Positions 8,061-14,489 of a stretch of 64,000 bases of DNA are shown here, piece after piece. The notes below the pieces were generated by a model. That model was given only the letters and a program-made list of their open reading frames with translations. It was not told the origin of the DNA and made no database searches. Numbering within the stretch: position 1 is the first letter of the stretch; the number at the start of each line of letters is the position of its first letter. Source of the stretch: Candidatus Moranbacteria bacterium GW2011_GWC2_40_12 (GTDB taxonomy: Bacteria; Patescibacteriota; Minisyncoccia; Moranbacterales; UBA11712); assembly GCA_000995965.1 (NCBI GenBank), contig LBYD01000002.1:199889-263888 (forward strand), in the 5' to 3' direction. The translations under genes were made by a program, and so were the position numbers.

Positions 8061-10207
8061 TGGAAATAATCAAGGGCCTCAACGAACAGCAAAGGGAAGC
8101 GGTGCTCTCGACGGAAGGGCCGGTTTTGGTCGTGGCGGGTGCGGGAAGCGGAAAAACGCGGCTGCTTGTCCACCGAATCGCCTATCTGATCAAGGAGAAA
8201 AAAGTCAGTCCGCGTCAAATACTCGCGGTTACTTTCACGAACAAAGCGGCCGAAGAAATGAAAGAACGGATAAAGAAATTGCTGGTCGGCGATTTCCGTT
8301 TTCAGCCCTGGATGGGAACTTTTCATCATATTTGCGTGCGGATTTTGAGGTCCGAAATCGACAAAATCGGATATAAAAAAAATTTTGTGATTTATGACGA
8401 CTCGGACCAGCGGGCGCTGGTGAAGAAAATAATGAAAGAAAACGAGATCAGCGCCGAGCAATTCAATCCCCGGGCGATGCTGGCGGTGATTTCGAAAGCC
8501 AAAGGAGAGCTTATGAAAGTCGAGGACTACATTTCCGGCGAGAGCTACTTTGAAAGGATTGTCGCTCGGGTTTATGGCGCTTACCAAAAAAATCTTCTCG
8601 AGAACAACGCCCTTGATTTTGACGATATTTTGCAAAAAACAGTCGAACTCTTTCAAAAATTCCCTGATATTCTTGAAAAATACCAGAATGTTTTCCGCTA
8701 TATTCTGGTTGACGAATACCAGGACACAAACCAGGCCCAGTATGTTTTGGTGAATCTTTTAGCCCAGCGCCACCGCAATCTTTGCGTCGTGGGGGATGAT
8801 TGGCAGTCCATATACGCTTTCCGGGGAGCGGATGTGCGCAATATTCTTGATTTTGAAAAAGACTATCCGGAAGCAAAAGTCGTGAAACTGGAGCGGAATT
8901 ATCGCTCCACGCAGAAAATTCTTGATGCCGCCTACGGCGTCATTTCGAAAAATATCCGCCGCAAAGACAAGAAACTGTGGACGGATAACATCGAAGGGCA
9001 CGACGTGGTTTTGTACAAAGCCTCCGATGAGCAGGATGAGGCTGGTTTCATCATTCGCGAAATTCAAAGAATCGTTGAAGAAGAAGGTTTGAGTCTCGAT
9101 GATTTTGTGGTTCTATACCGTACCAATGCCCAGTCGCGGGCTATCGAGGAAGCTTTTCTCGAGTCGGCCGTTCCGTATCGAGTGGTTGGCGGCGTGCGTT
9201 TTTATGAGCGGCGGGAGATCAAAGACTTTTTGGCGTATTTGCGGTTTATAAGCAATCCTACTGACGAAATCAGCCTTGGAAGAATCGTCAATCTTCCGCC
9301 GCGGGGGATTGGGAATATTACGCTGGGGAAGTGGATAAGATTCACTCGGGAAAACAATCTTGATTTTGTGGCTTCAGCAAAAAAAACGGGTGACATTTGC
9401 GGTCTCAATGGGGCGAAAATGGACGCAATTGCAAAATTCGGAGCACAAATTGAGCGGCTGAGGAGTGAAGCCGGACGCGCAACGATCATTGATCTTATGG
9501 ATTCGATTCTGACAGAAACGGGATATCAAAAATTGCTGCTCTCTGAGGGTGAAGTGGGGCAAATCCGGTTTGAAAACGTCCGGGAACTGTTCACGGTGGC
9601 GGAAAAATACAAAAAAGAGGAAGGCCTTGAGGGACTCAATATGTTTTTGGAGGAAGTGGCGCTGATGGCCTCGACGGATAATATTGATTCAAAATCAGGC
9701 CTGGTGCATCTGATGACGCTTCACAGCGCAAAGGGACTCGAATTCAACACGGTTTTTATTGCTGGCATGGAAGAGGGCTTGTTTCCGCACTCAAGAGCGC
9801 TTCTCGATGAAAGAGAGCTCGAAGAGGAAAGAAGGCTCGCTTATGTCGGCATCACGAGGGCCAAAAAAAGAATTTATCTTCTTTGGGCGACAACGAGGAA
9901 CATTTTCGGGTCAACAAGGGTGAATGTCGCCTCGCGTTTTTTGGATGATATCCCAGCTGAGCTAAAGGCCGACTTTGAGGAATTTCGCGCTTTCCCAAAA
10001 GTGCGAAAGGGAAAAGCCGGACTTTTTGAAGAAAAAAAGGAAAAAAGCTTAGCTTTGGAAAAATTCAAAGACGGAGAAAGAGTCAGGCACTCTATATTCG
10101 GAGAAGGCATTGTGATTTCCACAAAGGATGACATTGTCACAGTCGCTTTCATGAAAGAGGGACTCAAAAAAATTTCTGCCAAGTTCGGGAAATTGAAGAA
10201 AATATAA
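8060..10207 (+). CDS. pcrA: ATP-dependent DNA helicase PcrA/UvrD (SF1)
   Basis: 715 aa; GAGSGKT Walker A, DEYQDTN, VGDDWQSIYAFRGA and other UvrD motifs. Confidence 0.95.
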   Translation: MEIIKGLNEQQREAVLSTEGPVLVVAGAGSGKTRLLVHRIAYLIKEKKVSPRQILAVTFTNKAAEEMKERIKKLLVGDFRFQPWMGTFHHICVRILRSEIDKIGYKKNFVIYDDSDQRALVKKIMKENEISAEQFNPRAMLAVISKAKGELMKVEDYISGESYFERIVARVYGAYQKNLLENNALDFDDILQKTVELFQKFPDILEKYQNVFRYILVDEYQDTNQAQYVLVNLLAQRHRNLCVVGDDWQSIYAFRGADVRNILDFEKDYPEAKVVKLERNYRSTQKILDAAYGVISKNIRRKDKKLWTDNIEGHDVVLYKASDEQDEAGFIIREIQRIVEEEGLSLDDFVVLYRTNAQSRAIEEAFLESAVPYRVVGGVRFYERREIKDFLAYLRFISNPTDEISLGRIVNLPPRGIGNITLGKWIRFTRENNLDFVASAKKTGDICGLNGAKMDAIAKFGAQIERLRSEAGRATIIDLMDSILTETGYQKLLLSEGEVGQIRFENVRELFTVAEKYKKEEGLEGLNMFLEEVALMASTDNIDSKSGLVHLMTLHSAKGLEFNTVFIAGMEEGLFPHSRALLDERELEEERRLAYVGITRAKKRIYLLWATTRNIFGSTRVNVASRFLDDIPAELKADFEEFRAFPKVRKGKAGLFEEKKEKSLALEKFKDGERVRHSIFGEGIVISTKDDIVTVAFMKEGLKKISAKFGKLKKI

Positions 10208-10453
10208 ACTATTTTTACTTTAAATAAGGCAAATTATTGGATTCGGAGATTCAAAAACTGGACAAAATTATAGAAATATGCTAACATAATCCGTTGGTTC
10301 TTTGTCATCCATGTTTGTGATAAGACGGGCATTTTGCGCGTTATTTTGGCTCTTAAAACGCTTGCCTCATAGAAGGGGCAAGTCTGTATCTGGCGGAACC
10401 AGAAGAATGGCGAACCCCATTAGGGAGAGCCTAAAAACCAAAGGAGGTCCGAT

Positions 10454-11227
10454 ATGGAAAGCCTGGTAAGAATTCCGCAGTCTGAGCTTAACGCAACACT
10501 GGAAAGGCTTAGCAAACTTGGTGTCACGCAAGAGCATTTCAAGCGTGTCCGCTCAAGCAGAAAATATGCTAAAGCCGTGGCGTCGGCATTTCTCGGCGAT
10601 GATGGTGTGGTGATGAGTTATAATGATGTTCGCACCATTCTCGGTCAGGATTTCATCACGCCCGAGGAAATCGCCATTGCTCGCAAGCTCACCTATGGCG
10701 ACGATGTGCTTCAGTATTTCACTGAAACGCTTCCGTCCGAGGAAGTGTTGCAGTGGCTCCGTGACAACGGCTTCGTGCTGATTGCGGGACCGCCCAGTCC
10801 GATGTCGCTCTTGGAAGTCCGCGACCTCAACGCCCAGCTCCTTTACACCAAGTCTGGCGGTTGGTATGCGGAAGCGAAGCAGAAATTCTCACGGGACGAT
10901 AAGGTGGTTTCTGAATGGCTTATGCTCCGCAAGGGCGTCGTGCCCAAATCCACGAGCAAAACGTGGGACGAACAGCAGAAGCTTCTTTCCGAGGCGGAAT
11001 GCGTTCCCAACGCTCCCGAAACGACGTGGGGCGAAACCACTTACAAGGAAGTCCGTAATGCGTGGCTGTTTCCCAGCATCTACGCCAGAACTTCTTCCGT
11101 GGACTCAGACGACAATCGCGTCTGCGTCGGCGATTCGGCGGGTGGCGGTGTCTACGTCGGCAGCGGCTGGGGCGACGACCGCCACGACGGCCTTGGTCTG
11201 GCGTCCGCTCAGAAACGAAACTCGTAA
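10454..11227 (+). CDS. DGR target protein (variable protein) with C-terminal variable region
   Basis: 257-aa ORF with a good RBS (aaaggaggt); the last ~40 codons (11095-11215) are a near-copy of the downstream TR with adenine-specific differences; GC (~52%) is higher than the surrounding genome; no signal peptide seen. Confidence 0.8.
   Translation: MESLVRIPQSELNATLERLSKLGVTQEHFKRVRSSRKYAKAVASAFLGDDGVVMSYNDVRTILGQDFITPEEIAIARKLTYGDDVLQYFTETLPSEEVLQWLRDNGFVLIAGPPSPMSLLEVRDLNAQLLYTKSGGWYAEAKQKFSRDDKVVSEWLMLRKGVVPKSTSKTWDEQQKLLSEAECVPNAPETTWGETTYKEVRNAWLFPSIYARTSSVDSDDNRVCVGDSAGGGVYVGSGWGDDRHDGLGLASAQKRNS
11095..11215 (+). other. DGR variable region (VR) inside the target gene
   Basis: 121-bp alignment to TR 11587-11707; 15 mismatches fall at TR adenines (to G, T or C), 1 T-to-G, 1 terminal G/A; the 3' 20 bp ccttggtctggcgtccgctc are identical (IMH-like). 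Confidence 0.85.
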
Positions 11228-11586
11228 CCTTGAAATCTTGTTCCTTTTGTATTCTTGAGCCTTCGGCGATTTTTTTTCTCGCTGGAGGCTCTTTTCTTTT
11301 GTCAAAAACACTGATAAGATAAAATCAATCTTGCTAATGCAAGTTAGGTTACGGCTTAACTTCGCGAGATGTCTTTTCTTTAGACCTTACCAGAATATCG
11401 TCGGCTACGGCTTGCGATAGCGTGCGAGCAAAGATGAGAGTTAATTTCTTGTTTGCTCTTAGTGGAGGTGTTCTGATTTTGTCATCGGAACTGCTCTCGA
11501 ATAAAATACAGGAAAGAGAGAATATAGTCCGCTTTTAGCGGAAGTAAATCTCAATTTCCAGTGGCTTTCAGACGGGAACAAACAAA

Positions 11587-11707
11587 TTCCGTGGACTCAG
11601 ACGACAATCACGTCAACGTCGGCAATTCGGCGAGTGGCGGTGTCAACGTCAACAACAACTGGGACGACAACCGCAACGACTACCTTGGTCTGGCGTCCGC
11701 TCGGAAA
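11587..11707 (+). other. DGR template region (TR), non-coding template repeat
   Basis: Direct repeat of VR, rich in AAC codons in the VR frame (NHVNVGNSASGGVNVNNNWDDNRND); lies between the target gene and avd, upstream of the RT. Confidence 0.85.
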
Positions 11708-11723
11708 TTATCTCAAGTCGAAA

Positions 11724-11756
11724 GTAAACGCTCTCCTTTTTTGGGAGAGCGTTTAC
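11724..11756. terminator. perfect hairpin (gtaaacgctctcc-tttttt-ggagagcgtttac) immediately 3' of avd on the minus strand and 3' of TR on the plus strand
   Basis: 13-bp stem with a 6-nt T/A loop, read directly from the sequence. Confidence 0.6.
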
Positions 11757-11757
11757 T

Positions 11758-12108
11758 TTAGCAGTCCTTTACGGATTTTATCCAGCCGCCGAGCATTCTT
11801 CCTATTTCATCCGTTTTTTCCTGAAGCAGGACATACTTTTTGCTGTCAATCGCTTTCACTTCTTTGGCAAGGCGGACAAAAATTCTGAAAAGGTTCAACT
11901 TCAAGCTGGCTTTTTCAAGGACTGGCAATTTTTCCACTTTGGACATTTGGCTGGCCAGCAGGATACTTTCCAGTGTTTCCAGCAAAATGTTTTCGCATTT
12001 CTGCCAGAGCGTATAGCGGTCTTGTTTGGGGACTGAATTTCTGAAGCTATAAAAGTTCCGATACAACTCGTAGATTTTTTTAAAGATCGGTATGTCAAAT
12101 TCTTCCAT
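11758..12108 (-). CDS. avd: Avd-like accessory variability determinant (four-helix-bundle protein)
   Basis: 117 aa from MEEFDIPIFKKIYELYRNFYSF...; basic helical protein of the 23S-rRNA-intervening-sequence/four-helix-bundle family that includes DGR Avd; adjacent to the DGR RT. Confidence 0.7.
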   Translation of the reverse strand: MEEFDIPIFKKIYELYRNFYSFRNSVPKQDRYTLWQKCENILLETLESILLASQMSKVEKLPVLEKASLKLNLFRIFVRLAKEVKAIDSKKYVLLQEKTDEIGRMLGGWIKSVKDC

Positions 12109-12120
12109 AGGTTTATTGTT

Positions 12121-13170
12121 ATGAAGATTTATAAAGATGTTTTTGAGAAAATAATTTCGCCTGAAAATCTTTTTTCGGCTTGGGACAATTTCAAAGTCGG
12201 AAAGATAAAAAAGAAAGATGTCCAGGCGTTTGAATCGAAGCTGGAACAAAACATTTTCCAGCTTCATCGGGAATTGAGGGGACGCTCGTATAGGCACGGC
12301 AGTTATGCCTCATTTTATATACGTGATCCGAAACAAAGACATATTCACAAAGCCGAAGTCAGAGACAGAATTTTGCATCATGCCGTTTTTTCTATCCTCA
12401 ACCCCATTTTTGAGGCAACCTTTATTTCCCATTCTTTTTCTTGCCGAATTGGAAAGGGAACGCATAAAGGCGTTATCGCTTTGGAAAAAATGATAAGAAA
12501 AGAGACGCAAAATTATTCCAGACGTTGCTTTATTTTGAAGTGCGACGTGAGGAAGTTTTTTGATACGGTTGACCACGGAATTTTGATGAGGATTTTGAAA
12601 AAGCGGATTAAGGACGAAAATGCACTCTGTCTGTTAAGAGAAATTATTAGCAGTTTTTCCTCCGAGCATTCGGACATTTTCACAGTCCGAGGTTTGCCGA
12701 TTGGCAATCTCACCTCCCAGCTTTTTGCCAATATCTTCCTCAACGAGCTTGACCAGTTTGTCAAAAACAAAATGCGTTTGAAATTCTATGCTCGCTATAC
12801 CGATGATTTCGTCATTGTCGGGAAAGACGAAAGAGAATTGAAAAATATGCTTTCGGAAATACGCTCATTCTTGAAAGATAGATTGTCCCTGGAACTCCAC
12901 CCGAAAAAAATCGTGATTAGAAAATATAGCCAAGGAATTGATTATCTTGGCTATATCGTTTTGCCTCACTATCAGCTACTCCGAACAAAAACGAAAAAGC
13001 GAGTGTTCAAAAAGTTGAAAATGCGGATTGGGCAATACAGGGCGGGGGAAATTAGCGAAAAATCTTTGAACCAATCCCTGCAATCCTATCTCGGCGTTTT
13101 TTCCCACGCCGACACGCACGAATTGGAGCAGGAACTTCTTAATCAATTTTGGTTTTGGTTGAATGAATAA
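12121..13170 (+). CDS. diversity-generating retroelement reverse transcriptase
   Basis: 349 aa; RT motifs including KCDVRKFFDTVDH and YARYTDDFVIVG (YxDD); DGR-hallmark motif LPIGNLTSQ ([I/L]GxxxSQ) replaces the group II intron QGxxxSP. Confidence 0.85.
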   Translation: MKIYKDVFEKIISPENLFSAWDNFKVGKIKKKDVQAFESKLEQNIFQLHRELRGRSYRHGSYASFYIRDPKQRHIHKAEVRDRILHHAVFSILNPIFEATFISHSFSCRIGKGTHKGVIALEKMIRKETQNYSRRCFILKCDVRKFFDTVDHGILMRILKKRIKDENALCLLREIISSFSSEHSDIFTVRGLPIGNLTSQLFANIFLNELDQFVKNKMRLKFYARYTDDFVIVGKDERELKNMLSEIRSFLKDRLSLELHPKKIVIRKYSQGIDYLGYIVLPHYQLLRTKTKKRVFKKLKMRIGQYRAGEISEKSLNQSLQSYLGVFSHADTHELEQELLNQFWFWLNE

Positions 13171-13212
13171 TATTTGCGCAAAATAACTCGCCTAAAATTT
13201 TTCATAAACAAA

Positions 13213-13248
13213 AAACGGGGCTCTTTCAGAGGCATCCCGTTTTGTATT
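13213..13248. terminator. bidirectional hairpin terminator between the RT (+) and the LysM-CHAP gene (-)
   Basis: aaaacgggg...ccccgtttt stem flanked by A/T runs. Confidence 0.5.
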
Positions 13249-13259
13249 TAGAAAATATT

Positions 13260-14489
13260 TTAATATATGAAACCCTTTACAGTCCGGCTGTTGGCATTGA
13301 TAGTCCGGGTTGATTTTTTTCCGAATCCGGCGTAGTTCATTTCGGAAATAGTTACGGAATTCCCGTTTACTTTCTCGACAATCCCGACATGGCCCCAGCG
13401 CGATTCTCCGGTTACGATAATCGCTCCTGCCTTTGGCGTCCGGCCGGTGGCCTTTCCGGAAGCGCGGGCGTTTGTCAGCCAGGCTCCGGCGTTTCCGCCC
13501 CAGGGAACGTATTTTCTTTGGGCTACGTACCATGTGCAATATCCGTATGGAAAGCGATGGCCGCCTCCAGCTCTTGCATCCATCCGATAAGAGCTTGACG
13601 CGGTTGCGTATTGCGCTCCATAAGCCCCTGTTCTGTAAGCAGGCGCTGTCGGAGCGGCAGATGGCGTCGGAGCTGAAATGTATCCGTCAGGAAGGATTAT
13701 TTCCTGGCCGACAGCTAGCTTTTCATCGGCTGGAAGCTCATTGTAAGCCAGAACCTTTTGCTTGTCAGAATTATATTTTGCCACAATAGCATCAAGAGTG
13801 TCACTTTTTTGGATTTTGTATCTAACGCCTGTAACTGGAAGAACAGAAAGCTTATCTCCCGGCTTGAGGAGCGAAGTATCAGAAAGATTGTTAGCCCAGA
13901 GTATCGTGCTTACGGAAATTCCATGTCGGGCGGCAATTGATCCGGCGGTATCCCCCTCCTTTACGATATAAGTCTTAGCCTCTCTTCCGTTTCCTCCCAT
14001 CACGGTTGGATTATAGGAAGCCAAAGTCACCTGGCTTTGAATGGTTGGAGCCCTGAAGTATGAAGCCGTATCATCATAACCTTCTTCTTGAATTTCCTCT
14101 AAAATAAAATACGCCGGATCAGCAAGTGGCGCAGTAGCAAGATTATTTTTGCTTTCGTTCTGAAGAGCGATTTTTTGCTTGAGCGTATTGTTTTCTTTTG
14201 AATTAATTCCAAAGGCGTCGAACAGCGAACCCGGAGCTCCCTTTGCAGAAGAAAAGTTTATGAGAGCCACGGTGGCAACACAGACCGCGACGACGATAGT
14301 TGCCGAATATTCCCTGAAAAATGAAAGAAGTTTTCGAGCGGCAAATCTTTTTTTGAGGAAAAAAACCAACCTTCTCTGAAGAGAGCGGTCGGTTCCATAA
14401 TGAATCACCTGATCCGCGCTGCGGATGGCGAGCGGATCTCCCAAAGTATTTTTTCCTCTTAGCACTATTCGCAATCTCTTCCAGGTCAT
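13260..14489 (-). CDS. membrane-anchored peptidoglycan hydrolase with two LysM domains and a C-terminal CHAP domain
   Basis: 409 aa; N-terminal TM anchor; two LysM repeats (YIVKEGDTAGSIAARHGISVSTILWANNL and YKIQKSDTLDAIVAKYN); CHAP-like Cys/His (GYCTWYV...GHVGIV). Confidence 0.8.
   Translation of the reverse strand: MTWKRLRIVLRGKNTLGDPLAIRSADQVIHYGTDRSLQRRLVFFLKKRFAARKLLSFFREYSATIVVAVCVATVALINFSSAKGAPGSLFDAFGINSKENNTLKQKIALQNESKNNLATAPLADPAYFILEEIQEEGYDDTASYFRAPTIQSQVTLASYNPTVMGGNGREAKTYIVKEGDTAGSIAARHGISVSTILWANNLSDTSLLKPGDKLSVLPVTGVRYKIQKSDTLDAIVAKYNSDKQKVLAYNELPADEKLAVGQEIILPDGYISAPTPSAAPTAPAYRTGAYGAQYATASSSYRMDARAGGGHRFPYGYCTWYVAQRKYVPWGGNAGAWLTNARASGKATGRTPKAGAIIVTGESRWGHVGIVEKVNGNSVTISEMNYAGFGKKSTRTINANSRTVKGFIY

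Follow-up and report, generated by a model that had tools for sequence, protein, structure and literature searches.

Retron msr-msd ncRNAs consist of a structured 5' RNA that carries the priming nucleotide, followed 3' by the template, whose 3' end pairs back to the 5' region beside the priming residue; the ncRNA is autonomous, and the reverse transcriptase (RT) is translated separately. In contrast, the template of a diversity-generating retroelement (DGR), a system in which the accessory protein Avd is required, is a protein-coding repeat (TR) whose copy, mutagenised at adenines, enters a target gene. For the order of elements in the DGR of phage BPP-1, we follow bioRxiv 10.1101/2023.10.23.563531 and Handa et al. 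(NAR 2018; PMC6182149). The RT-10 RNA motif (Weinberg et al. 2017; PMC5737381) corresponds to the TR-brt spacer of BPP-1, and a role in priming has been proposed for it. Furthermore, Handa et al. reported Sp-like elements downstream of TR in CPR DGRs, in a survey that covered 40 nt upstream and 100 nt downstream of the repeat. With respect to gene order, Wu et al. 2018 (NAR 46:11; PMC5758913) defined architecture B3 as TR-(avd)-RT and assigned to it 90% of the CPR DGRs in their set.

The DGR locus and its gene order

The locus analysed here lies in a 64-kb stretch of DNA, which in its whole length we call the window, and carries the hallmarks of a DGR: an adenine-biased TR/VR pair with VR at the 3' end of its gene, an IMH/IMH* pair, a DGR-type RT, and Avd. 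The target gene is an ORF of 257 aa on the plus strand (10454-11227) with no Pfam or NCBIfam match in family searches. Its 3' end contains VR (11095-11215, plus strand), a 121-nt repeat that ends 12 nt before the stop codon and has a GC-rich, IMH-like 3' end at 11199-11212. TR, also 121 nt long, lies at 11587-11707 on the same strand. The two repeats are 86% identical, and 15 of their 17 mismatches over 121 nt fall on TR adenines (12 A>G, 2 A>T, and 1 A>C; binomial P = 1e-7 for at least 15 of 17). All 15 variable adenine sites occupy codon positions 1-2, and the TR codons include 8 AAC and 2 AAT. VR differs from TR at half of the TR adenines, and differences of this kind show past diversification only. 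The 3' boundary of the pair is sharp: TGGCGTCCGCTCAG in VR (11199-11212) stands against TGGCGTCCGCTCGG in TR (11691-11704), similarity is gone past 11707, and G11703 is the sole non-adenine TR/VR difference at this boundary, separating IMH* from IMH. Downstream of the target gene, a terminator-like hairpin can be read from the sequence at 11257-11300 on the plus strand (GAGCCTTCGGCGA / TCGCTGGAGGCTC, then TTTTCTTTT), and related loci keep both the hairpin and its T-run in position.

The avd gene occupies 11758-12108 on the minus strand, with its ATG at 12108 and its stop codon at 11760-11758, and encodes 116 aa; it is thus convergent with the TR RNA described below and divergent from the RT gene. 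The RT (12121-13170, plus strand, 349 aa) matches RVT_1 with an E value of 5.5e-27 and carries IGNLTSQ at residue 194 and YTDD at 226, in agreement with the DGR-type motifs [I/L/V]GxxxSQ and YxDD. It is up to 77% identical to RTs from CPR DGR loci, and its nearest homologues lie in loci that have TR/VR pairs of their own. The original prediction had placed avd on the minus strand, head-to-head with an RT gene starting 13 nt from the avd start, and TR beyond the avd stop in the orientation of VR and RT, some 400 bp upstream of RT. Our coordinates bear this out: the two start codons are separated by 12 nt (12109-12120), and the end of TR lies 50 nt from the avd stop and 413 nt from the RT start. 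The start-codon gap is likewise 0-14 nt in 20 of 21 related loci.

Because the inverted gene is central to this layout, we re-examined its strand. The possibility that the minus-strand ORF is spurious, with the true accessory gene elsewhere, found nothing in its favor beyond an NCBIfam score (NF033474, "DGR protein Avd") of 80.0 bits, exactly at the cut-off of 80. The protein matches the Pfam family bAvd (PF22296) over the full profile with an E value of 3.4e-19, homologues with 52-92% identity are found at the equivalent place on the minus strand in 31 of 34 related loci and in 54 of 55 loci from metagenomes, and there is no plus-strand avd alternative within the 64-kb window. The assignment to the minus strand therefore holds, and the spurious-ORF reading, to which we give next to no credence, is effectively refuted already.

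The arrangement had been called unusual, which is true only against the Bordetella phage prototype. Set beside the catalogued CPR architectures, the locus fits B3: TR precedes RT in the same orientation, and the avd gene that separates them is encoded on the reverse strand. It shares with B3 its order and orientations, including the upstream target gene and VR, and we found no gene-order difference. Judged by record title, the 34 closest RT relatives come nearly all from CPR/Patescibacteria MAGs; avd is inverted beside RT in 31 of them, and the full VR-TR-(avd)-RT order is present in 29. We are virtually certain that this is a chromosomal DGR of the architecture typical of CPR. The inverted-avd order is the catalogued standard CPR layout and no discovery. 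The classes of Wu et al. rest on gene order only, and a search of their text found no structured RNA upstream of TR, no separate TR transcription unit, and no shared hairpin.

A structured RNA domain upstream of TR

The interval between the target gene and TR is conserved, and RNAalifold predicts 59 base pairs in it, 50 of which show compensatory changes. The resulting 5' domain is 255 nt long and comprises helices P1-P6. Its 5' subdomain (11330-11428, plus strand) contains P1 (11331-11334/11364-11367), P2 (11341-11349/11354-11362), and P3 (11387-11405/11410-11427), which were defined by RNAalifold and pair counts across 25 loci; in these loci most P1-P3 pairs show compensatory changes, and the loops accept variable hairpin insertions. 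The core domain (11449-11585) is closed by P4 (11449-11460 with 11574-11585) and holds P5 (11464-11497), a conserved single-stranded joiner, CGAATAAAATACA (11498-11510), and P6 (11511-11559). Pair counts found 94.5% of cells paired, compared with 43-49% when partners were slid, and a covariation score of 0.63 against 0.13-0.16 for slid partners; the observed values were reached in 0 of 500 shuffles. For the core, 85 distinct sequences gave 97.5% pairing, compared with 38-62% in slid controls, with compensatory changes in 25 of 29 pairs.

A covariance model, R1, scores this locus at 132 bits (11429-11587), and in the window together with the fetched loci it found 95 matches representing 85 distinct sequences. 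A search of metagenomes from the RNA alone returned at least 116 pattern matches; 80 of these loci were fetched, and 68 were positive with the covariance model. In 54 of the 55 loci with enough flank, avd follows on the minus strand 137-230 nt past the RNA, with RT on the plus strand nearly always next. These comparisons establish the anatomy, conservation, and covariation of the RNA domain and its obligate linkage to the TR-(avd)-RT order. Some loci depart from this order: in L012 the TR module is inverted, on the strand opposite RT and unlinked from avd and RT, while in L124 and L133 RT lies ~2 kb upstream on the opposite strand. R1 misses the most divergent B3 loci, L021, L024, L025, and L033, as well as the archaeal locus L029, the avd-RT-TR locus L031, and Lachnospiraceae-type DGRs. 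A pattern scan of IMG/VR returned one match, negative with the covariance model, and gave no sign that the class is phage-borne.

The conserved interval does not read as a small-protein gene, since it has 3-6 stops per frame, non-triplet insertions, and compensatory pair changes. A search of positions 10000-14000 against Rfam gave no match at E values up to 1, and neither Rfam nor the searchable papers yielded a description that would correspond to this RNA domain. Like the domain described here, the RT-10 motif is a conserved structured DGR RNA that has been proposed to act in priming, but it lies between TR and RT. The 255-nt structured domain, overlooked in the first reading of this DNA, is the most informative part of the locus.

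Upstream of the domain, a putative extended -10 element (TGaTAAGAT, 11312-11320, plus strand) predicts a transcript start at ~11327-11330. The candidate of this locus, TAAGAT, is weak, and no convincing -35 element was found at 17 nt from it. Across the alignment of 25 related loci, a TAnnnT box (TATAAT, TATACT, TAAAAT, or similar) can be seen by eye in most, ~14-19 nt upstream of the first helix, P1. We discounted the best match in a sigma-70 scan (11479-11507, 10/12) as a promoter for TR. It falls within the structured RNA, where its TAAAAT coincides with the conserved single-stranded joiner, and it is spanned by covarying helices, namely P4 and the primer-like duplex described below.

The hairpin between TR and avd

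Beginning 13 nt past the end of TR, a perfect hairpin occupies 11721-11759, with arms at 11721-11736 and 11744-11759 that form 16 pairs around a 7-nt loop; beyond it lies antisense avd, and its 3' arm overlaps the avd stop codon. A perfect hairpin had been anticipated between TR and the avd stop, and it is present, with a 16-bp stem in place of the 13 bp given for 11724-11756. It has a GC core (CGCTCTCC/GGAGAGCG) with an A-run 5' and TTTACTTT 3' on both strands, and the chance expectation for such hairpins in 64 kb is ~1.5e-4. Of 29 loci with the B3 layout, 26 have a hairpin in the interval from TR to the avd stop codon, with a median stem of 12 bp and usually 0-6 nt from that codon. The stems vary among loci (GGAGAGCG, GGGTATTCC, GGACACC, and others). 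Flanking sequence is rich in A on the 5' side and in T on the 3' side (median 4 A and 5 T), and 14 of the 26 pass both thresholds. In L012 the hairpin stays with TR, which there is not beside avd.

We propose that this hairpin may serve as a bidirectional terminator of the TR RNA on the plus strand and of avd on the minus strand. The basis for a terminator role is comparative evidence only: a consensus terminator scan did not call the hairpin, and when the full 16-bp stem is considered the tail is not T-rich. The hairpin is also a proposed positional counterpart, by analogy, of the Avd-binding stem-loop of BPP-1 (Sp 3-33), which directly follows TR and so has the same relative position. That Avd binding is its main function, in place of termination, is a reading we consider doubtful but worth keeping in view. 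Handa et al. report such stem-loops just 3' of TR in 207 of 278 DGRs, and the retention of the hairpin with TR in L012, with avd elsewhere, would fit this role. However, the stems are long and perfect and lack the flipped-out bases described for BPP-1, the loops in many loci are not tetraloops, and the A-run and T-run flanks on both strands, together with the position next to the avd stop, suit a shared terminator. Avd binding could also be a second role of the hairpin within the main explanation.

The original prediction had left two options for a plus-strand RNA containing TR: linkage to the RT transcript by reading antisense through avd, or separate production. The conserved -10 box, the covarying RNA domain, the terminator-like hairpin, and the loci in which TR is unlinked or inverted together favor an RNA made separately, and the comparative evidence disfavors linkage by antisense read-through. 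Hence, TR is very probably the 3' part of its own structured RNA gene of ~440 nt, with predicted ends at ~11327 and ~11766 on the plus strand.

Two predicted duplexes bracket TR

A single continuous strand of the 5' domain pairs with both flanks of TR. Residues 11429-11448 (CAAAGATGAGAGTTAATTTC), which we term the primer-like strand, pair with the 3' end and flank of TR at 11703-11720 (GGAAATTATCTCAAGTCG), while the adjoining residues 11449-11460 form P4 with 11574-11585, just upstream of TR. TR would thereby form a loop between the two duplexes. In the primer-like duplex, the partner of G11704 is the invariant C11448. The distal helix of the primer-like duplex varies by locus (GGATGGAG/CTCCATCC, TGAGGAGA/TCTCCTCA, CATTACC/GGTAATG), and the duplex contains bulges and a recurrent mismatch at the penultimate pair. 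Because of these bulges, and because MAFFT places the TR 3' ends in two registers, the duplex could not be counted column by column and was assessed by comparing cognate with non-cognate duplex energies. Under permutation tests that ignore phylogeny and so overstate significance, the cognate primer-like duplexes were more stable than non-cognate ones (-13.7 vs -10.0 kcal/mol, 0/20000 permutations; -14.2 vs -10.0 kcal/mol, 0/5000, in a second comparison; 0/5000 with 65 unique loci), as was P4 (-17.7 vs -12.4 kcal/mol, 0/5000). Nine of the 12 P4 pairs show compensatory changes. Its first two pairs (U-A, U-A) are invariant and hence have no covariation support, and their residues may instead be unpaired functional nucleotides. 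By eye and by folding, the two-duplex core is also kept in the four divergent B3 loci missed by R1, whose sequences are unrelated.

These pairings bear on the possibility that TR and RT are co-transcribed in canonical style, through the hairpin and antisense avd, with spacer-like elements on the 3' side of TR, like those of BPP-1. In favor of this, TR and RT point the same way and are close together, a clear RT promoter was not identified, and the terminator scan passed over the hairpin; Handa et al., moreover, describe candidate Avd-binding stem-loops and stop duplexes at downstream positions in DGRs from CPR. Yet when a partner for the TR flank was sought in 140 nt of antisense avd, there was no cognate signal (2291/5000), and the segment upstream of TR gave only a weak one (241/5000), whereas each of them pairs strongly with a cognate partner in the 5' domain. 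The hairpin with its A/T flanks is conserved, and the arrangements of L012, L124, and L133, with RT on the opposite strand, mean that co-transcription of TR and RT cannot be required. We consider a canonical-style RNA very unlikely. Nor did we find at this locus a structured spacer of the BPP-1 type, which would separate TR from RT within one transcript and supply the primer and stop strands.

The BPP-1 DGR RNA consists of the avd 3' end, TR, and Sp; it forms an RNP with RT and Avd and is cis-primed from a 2'-OH of its spacer. In the BPP-1 bRT-Avd RNP, one strand likewise anneals to the 3' end of TR and, adjacent to this, to the segment immediately upstream of TR, so that TR is looped out, and a template:primer duplex lies beside the "cPRT Stop" duplex, the same geometry as predicted here. 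As a control, the duplex method applied to BPP-1 recovered the published avd:Sp duplex as strong (-18.5 kcal/mol) and the TR:Sp duplex as weaker (-8.7 kcal/mol). The two RNAs share the order that follows the duplexes, namely a small stem-loop, then a stretch that is A-rich or single-stranded, and finally a long stem-loop; they also share a stem-loop directly after TR, and in both, initiation is predicted at a template G within IMH*. They differ in that the Sp-like strand and its stem-loops lie 3' of TR in BPP-1 and 5' of TR here, a circular permutation. Furthermore, our locus has the additional P1-P3 subdomain, which has no BPP-1 counterpart, and an inverted avd outside the RNA, and its RNA would stop at the terminator-like hairpin, whereas that of BPP-1 runs on into brt. 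There is no sequence similarity between the two, and R1 misses BPP-1 as Rfam misses our RNA; the suggested equivalence to the BPP-1 Sp is one of order and topology only. The linear logic of the TR RNA, primer 5' and template 3', is that of retron msr-msd, a topological analogy only; the retron RT belongs to another clade, and no msDNA product or defence role is involved here.

The 5' domain might alternatively be a real structured RNA that acts outside priming, as a cis-regulatory leader or as a stability or processing element that sets TR RNA levels. Priming could then take place in some other way, for instance from a nicked or processed 3' end, and there is an alternative BPP-1 model in which priming occurs from nicked template RNA (PMC5703328). 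The absence of P1-P3 from BPP-1 would suit such a function, and the role of the 5' domain is read from sequence comparison. Against this stands the placement of two covarying long-range helices, formed by one strand, whose positions coincide exactly with the 5' and 3' limits of TR. This bracket is the geometry of the active BPP-1 complex and is not expected of a leader, and avd and RT accompany the RNA in all but one of the loci with enough flank. We regard a non-priming role as unlikely.

A proposed route from TR RNA to VR

We favor an explanation in which a B3 DGR has a separate structured TR-RNA gene whose permuted RNA is cis-primed, and as a whole we consider it probable. The locus would comprise four transcription units: the target gene with its own terminator hairpin, the TR-RNA gene on the plus strand, avd on the minus strand, and RT on the plus strand. 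The TR RNA would start at the conserved -10 box, cross the 5' domain from P1 to P6 and then TR, and end at the hairpin, where it would converge with avd. In the folded RNA, 11429-11448 would pair with the TR 3' flank and 11449-11460 with the 12 nt upstream of TR, leaving TR as a loop, and RT-Avd would bind this RNA. Synthesis of cDNA would be cis-primed at the C11448/U11449 junction, start opposite G11703, and halt at P4, and the adenine-mutagenised cDNA would then replace VR. What we infer from the comparative data are the two ends of the transcript, the terminator role of the hairpin, the binding of proteins, and the site of priming. Within this scheme, we lean slightly towards a permuted equivalent of Sp with priming at the junction. 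The broader proposition, that the RNA of CPR-type (B3) DGRs is a circular permutation, autonomous and ~440 nt long, with recruiting, priming, and stop elements 5' of TR and cis-priming at C11448/U11449, appears to us evenly balanced.

Implications for CPR DGRs

A large share of the known DGRs come from CPR bacteria, and the comparative data address how a functional template RNA can arise when an inverted avd stands between TR and RT. The answer offered is concrete. It consists of a defined RNA gene whose helices are mapped and for which a priming junction and a stop helix are predicted, and a covariance model can find this element from sequence alone. If the proposition of a permuted RNA is true, most CPR DGRs use an RNA layout that has no description in the searchable literature, and one that a survey window of 40 nt upstream and 100 nt downstream of TR would miss. 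The move of the elements upstream would also explain the inversion of avd and the existence of TR modules unlinked from RT. If the permutation is true, the DGR ribonucleoprotein core tolerates rewiring of its RNA, which bears on the evolution of DGRs and their relation to retrons, and CPR DGRs would provide, for the engineering of DGR-based mutagenesis, a compact template RNA that acts in trans and does not depend on the RT transcript.

The cassette has a catalogued gene order

The region carries a diversity-generating retroelement (DGR) with all the elements listed in the original prediction: variable repeat (VR), template repeat (TR), avd and reverse transcriptase (RT). VR (11095-11215) and TR (11587-11707) form a direct repeat of 121 nt with 86% identity, in which 15 of the 17 mismatches fall at TR adenines (chance of at least 15 of 17, 1e-7; binomial, TR composition 31 A in 121). 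All 15 lie in codon positions 1 or 2 of the ORF at 10454-11227, and TR contains eight AAC codons. The minus-strand ORF proposed to be avd (ATG at 12108, stop at 11760-11758, 116 aa) is borne out as such, its product matching Pfam bAvd (PF22296) over the whole profile (E = 3.4e-19) and NCBIfam NF033474, 'diversity-generating retroelement protein Avd', at 80.0 bits, right at the limit set by the cut-off of 80. The plus-strand RT gene (12121-13170) matches RVT_1 (E = 5.5e-27) with the motifs IGNLTSQ and YTDD, and no second [ILV]GxxxSQ RT motif was found in an open frame elsewhere in the window. Since the surrounding genes encode a UvrD-type helicase, a LysM-CHAP hydrolase and a XerC-type recombinase, the chromosomal setting of the DGR is an ordinary one. 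A hairpin with a T-run (13200-13245, AAAAAACGGGGCTC...CCCGTTTTGTATTT), placed after the RT stop and before the convergent LysM-CHAP gene, looks like a second shared terminator.

The layout had been described as unusual, which holds against Bordetella phage BPP-1 alone, whose order is avd, TR, Sp (the spacer 3' of TR), brt. The cassette itself has an already known layout, architecture B3, 'TR-(avd)-RT' with parentheses marking the reverse strand (Wu et al. 2018, PMC5758913). Scanning the window RT against one genome per species returned 286 relatives, of which we used the closest 34 (30-77% identity); by their labels these are mostly metagenome-assembled genomes of the candidate phyla radiation (CPR), one being a Woesearchaeota archaeon and a few carrying other names. 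Of these 34, 31 have a minus-strand avd directly next to RT, by an iterated search with the window Avd, and 29 have the full order VR(+), TR(+), (avd-), RT(+), by a TR/VR search. The locus is a typical member of B3, the standard layout catalogued for CPR. Only 12 nt separate the start codons of avd and RT, and 20 of 21 related loci have a gap of 0-14 nt, with a literal CATATG in two (L006 and L015); such back-to-back starts imply that the promoter and ribosome-binding site of each gene lie within the other's coding sequence, or that the mRNAs are leaderless. Two loci have a second, plus-strand avd homologue near the B3 element (L008:1-841 and L025:4441-4851), and L008 also carries another TR/VR pair, a sign that a single CPR genome may hold two neighbouring DGRs.

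A structured RNA domain precedes TR

The spacing between VR and TR is nearly constant across related loci (~480-600 nt), and the intervening ~360 nt are strongly conserved. The target gene ends in a hairpin with a T-run (11257-11300). Directly 3' of VR and its GC-rich 3' end (IMH), and 5' of this terminator hairpin, are four to five tandem CTYGNNNN units of ~8 nt (11222-11262; CTCGTAAC CTTGAAAT CTTGTTCC TTTTGTATT CTTGAGCC), whose counterpart, periodic yTTGA units, is kept in at least 20 related loci; next to the IMH, they may serve for protein binding or target recognition.

Beyond the hairpin, a plus-strand -10-like box (TGaTAAGAT, 11312-11320) is followed by a plus-strand stretch of 255 nt (11330-11586) with the hallmarks of structured RNA. 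A TAnnnT box, judged by eye on the alignment, lies ~14-19 nt 5' of the first helix in most of 25 aligned loci. Across these loci RNAalifold predicted 59 pairs, 50 of them kept through two-sided changes. Standard pairs fill 94.5% of the cells in this structure, versus 43-49% when partners are slid by 1-3 columns, and the covariation score is 0.63 versus 0.13-0.16; none of 500 shuffles reached the observed value of any measure. Some loci carry variable hairpins inserted in the loops of the domain, and every reading frame contains 3-6 stop codons, so selection acts on RNA pairing rather than on a peptide. No Rfam family matches the domain.

Of the sigma-70-like matches in the region, the best (TTGTCA-17-TAAAAT, 10/12, 11479-11507) could be read as an internal transcription start, but it lies inside the structured RNA, where the conserved single-stranded joiner CGAAUAAAAUACA makes up its -10 hexamer; a promoter function is unlikely.

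Long-range helices and a hairpin flank TR

Two long-range pairings bracket TR. The helix P4 (11449-11460 with 11574-11585) has 12 pairs and ends one base before TR. Compensatory changes occur in nine of these pairs; the first two never vary, and their U residues may just as well be unpaired nucleotides with a function of their own. Directly 5' of P4 on the same strand, a primer-like strand (11429-11448) can base-pair with the 3' end of TR and its flank (11703-11720), the invariant C11448 being matched with G11704. The sequence of this duplex differs by locus (GGATGGAG/CTCCATCC, TGAGGAGA/TCTCCTCA, CATTACC/GGTAATG, TGAGA...TAATTTC/GAAATTA...TCTCA).

Because indels block column-wise counting of the primer-like duplex, we compared cognate with non-cognate duplex energies. 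In permutation tests that ignore phylogeny, and whose significance is therefore overstated, the primer-like duplex gave -13.7 versus -10.0 kcal/mol in 25 loci (0/20000 permutations reaching the observed value) and -14.6 versus -12.7 kcal/mol in 65 unique loci including metagenomes (0/5000), and P4 gave -17.7 versus -12.4 kcal/mol in the same test (0/5000). As controls, neither the TR flank against 140 nt of antisense avd (-12.6 versus -12.5 kcal/mol; 2291/5000) nor the segment upstream of TR against antisense avd (-14.3 versus -13.5 kcal/mol; 241/5000) gave a clear signal. The distinct helix variants are a stronger argument than these tests. Four distant B3 loci of unrelated sequence (L021, L024, L025 and L033) likewise have a strand upstream of TR that pairs with two stretches in turn, the 3' end of TR and, without a gap, the bases immediately 5' of TR.

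A perfect hairpin between TR and the avd stop, predicted with a 13-bp stem, is present but longer, with 16 pairs (11721-11736 with 11744-11759), a 7-nt loop and a 3' arm overlapping the avd stop codon; chance alone would give ~1.5e-4 hairpins of this kind in the window. A hairpin recurs at this place in 26 of 29 B3-layout loci with a stem of varying sequence (median 12 bp), usually 0-6 nt from the avd stop and with flanks A-rich 5' and T-rich 3'. This arrangement would fit a terminator common to the convergent TR RNA and avd; a generic terminator scan of the region did not call the hairpin.

The RNA may be a permuted form of the BPP-1 DGR RNA

In BPP-1, the Sp strand forms two adjacent duplexes with TR looped out between them (Handa et al., bioRxiv 10.1101/2023.10.23.563531): a template:primer duplex with the TR 3' end, priming from Sp A56 with TR G117 as first template base, and a 'cPRT Stop' duplex with the avd segment just 5' of TR. 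Further along Sp come a small stem-loop, adenosines engaged in A-minor contacts, the single-stranded 'Thumb Ring' and a long stem-loop bound by bRT, and an Avd-binding stem-loop lies directly 3' of TR (same source). Applied to the BPP-1 sequence, our duplex method returned a strong avd:Sp pairing (-18.5 kcal/mol) and a weaker TR:Sp pairing (-8.7 kcal/mol).

The window RNA shares these elements and their cyclic order, without sequence similarity. From 5' to 3' it comprises the primer-like strand (11429-11448), a stop-like strand (the P4 5' strand, 11449-11460), the P5 stem-loop (11464-11497), the joiner (11498-11510), which is the most conserved single-stranded stretch, the P6 stem-loop (11511-11559), the P4 3' strand, TR, the partner of the primer-like strand and the hairpin. 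The break point is shifted, so that all Sp elements, 3' of TR in BPP-1, precede TR here, and an extra P1-P3 subdomain is present. Judging from this topology, we infer that the window RNA may be a circular permutation of the BPP-1 DGR RNA. The hairpin stands where BPP-1 has its Avd-binding stem-loop, and may serve both as that element and as a terminator.

A survey of further DGRs by Handa et al., with CPR examples among them, took in 40 nt on the upstream and 100 nt on the downstream side of TR, limits within which the 5' domain would not be contained. Full-text literature searches turned up neither a structured domain 5' of TR nor a permuted DGR RNA, although a prior description is possible; whether the RNA organisation of this locus is a new variant of DGR RNA we judge to be evenly balanced.

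The TR RNA is a widespread and separable module

A covariance model of the RNA core (150 positions) finds the element in most B3 relatives, including loci outside its training set; it misses the four most divergent B3 loci (L021, L024, L025 and L033) and detects none in Lachnospiraceae-type DGR loci or in BPP-1. A weak match at 58224-58319 (15.5 bits, E = 0.68) is most likely due to chance.

The placement of the module with respect to avd and RT varies. In L012 (2078-2357, minus strand), the RNA and TR are inverted relative to RT and 1.3 kb away from avd, and TR still has its own 13-bp hairpin followed by a T-run; in L124 and L133, RT lies ~2 kb upstream on the other strand. In L019 (951-2404), a 1.45-kb insertion between the TR flank and avd breaks the hairpin. 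Of the two options in the original prediction, the comparative evidence favours the second, that the TR RNA is made separately.

An RNA-only pattern matched at least 116 metagenome stretches, and 68 of the 80 metagenome loci fetched score 90-157 bits with the covariance model. A minus-strand avd begins 137-230 nt after the RNA in 54 of 55 loci with at least 700 nt downstream, with RT nearly always next. Across 85 distinct sequences, pairing in the core reaches 97.5%, and 25 of its 29 pairs show compensatory changes. Scanning IMG/VR with the RNA pattern yielded a single viral contig (L198, the same contig as L152), which the covariance model scored negative. A real and widespread structured RNA behind this locus is well supported, and, within the collections searched, this class of DGR and RNA appears to be cellular rather than phage-borne.
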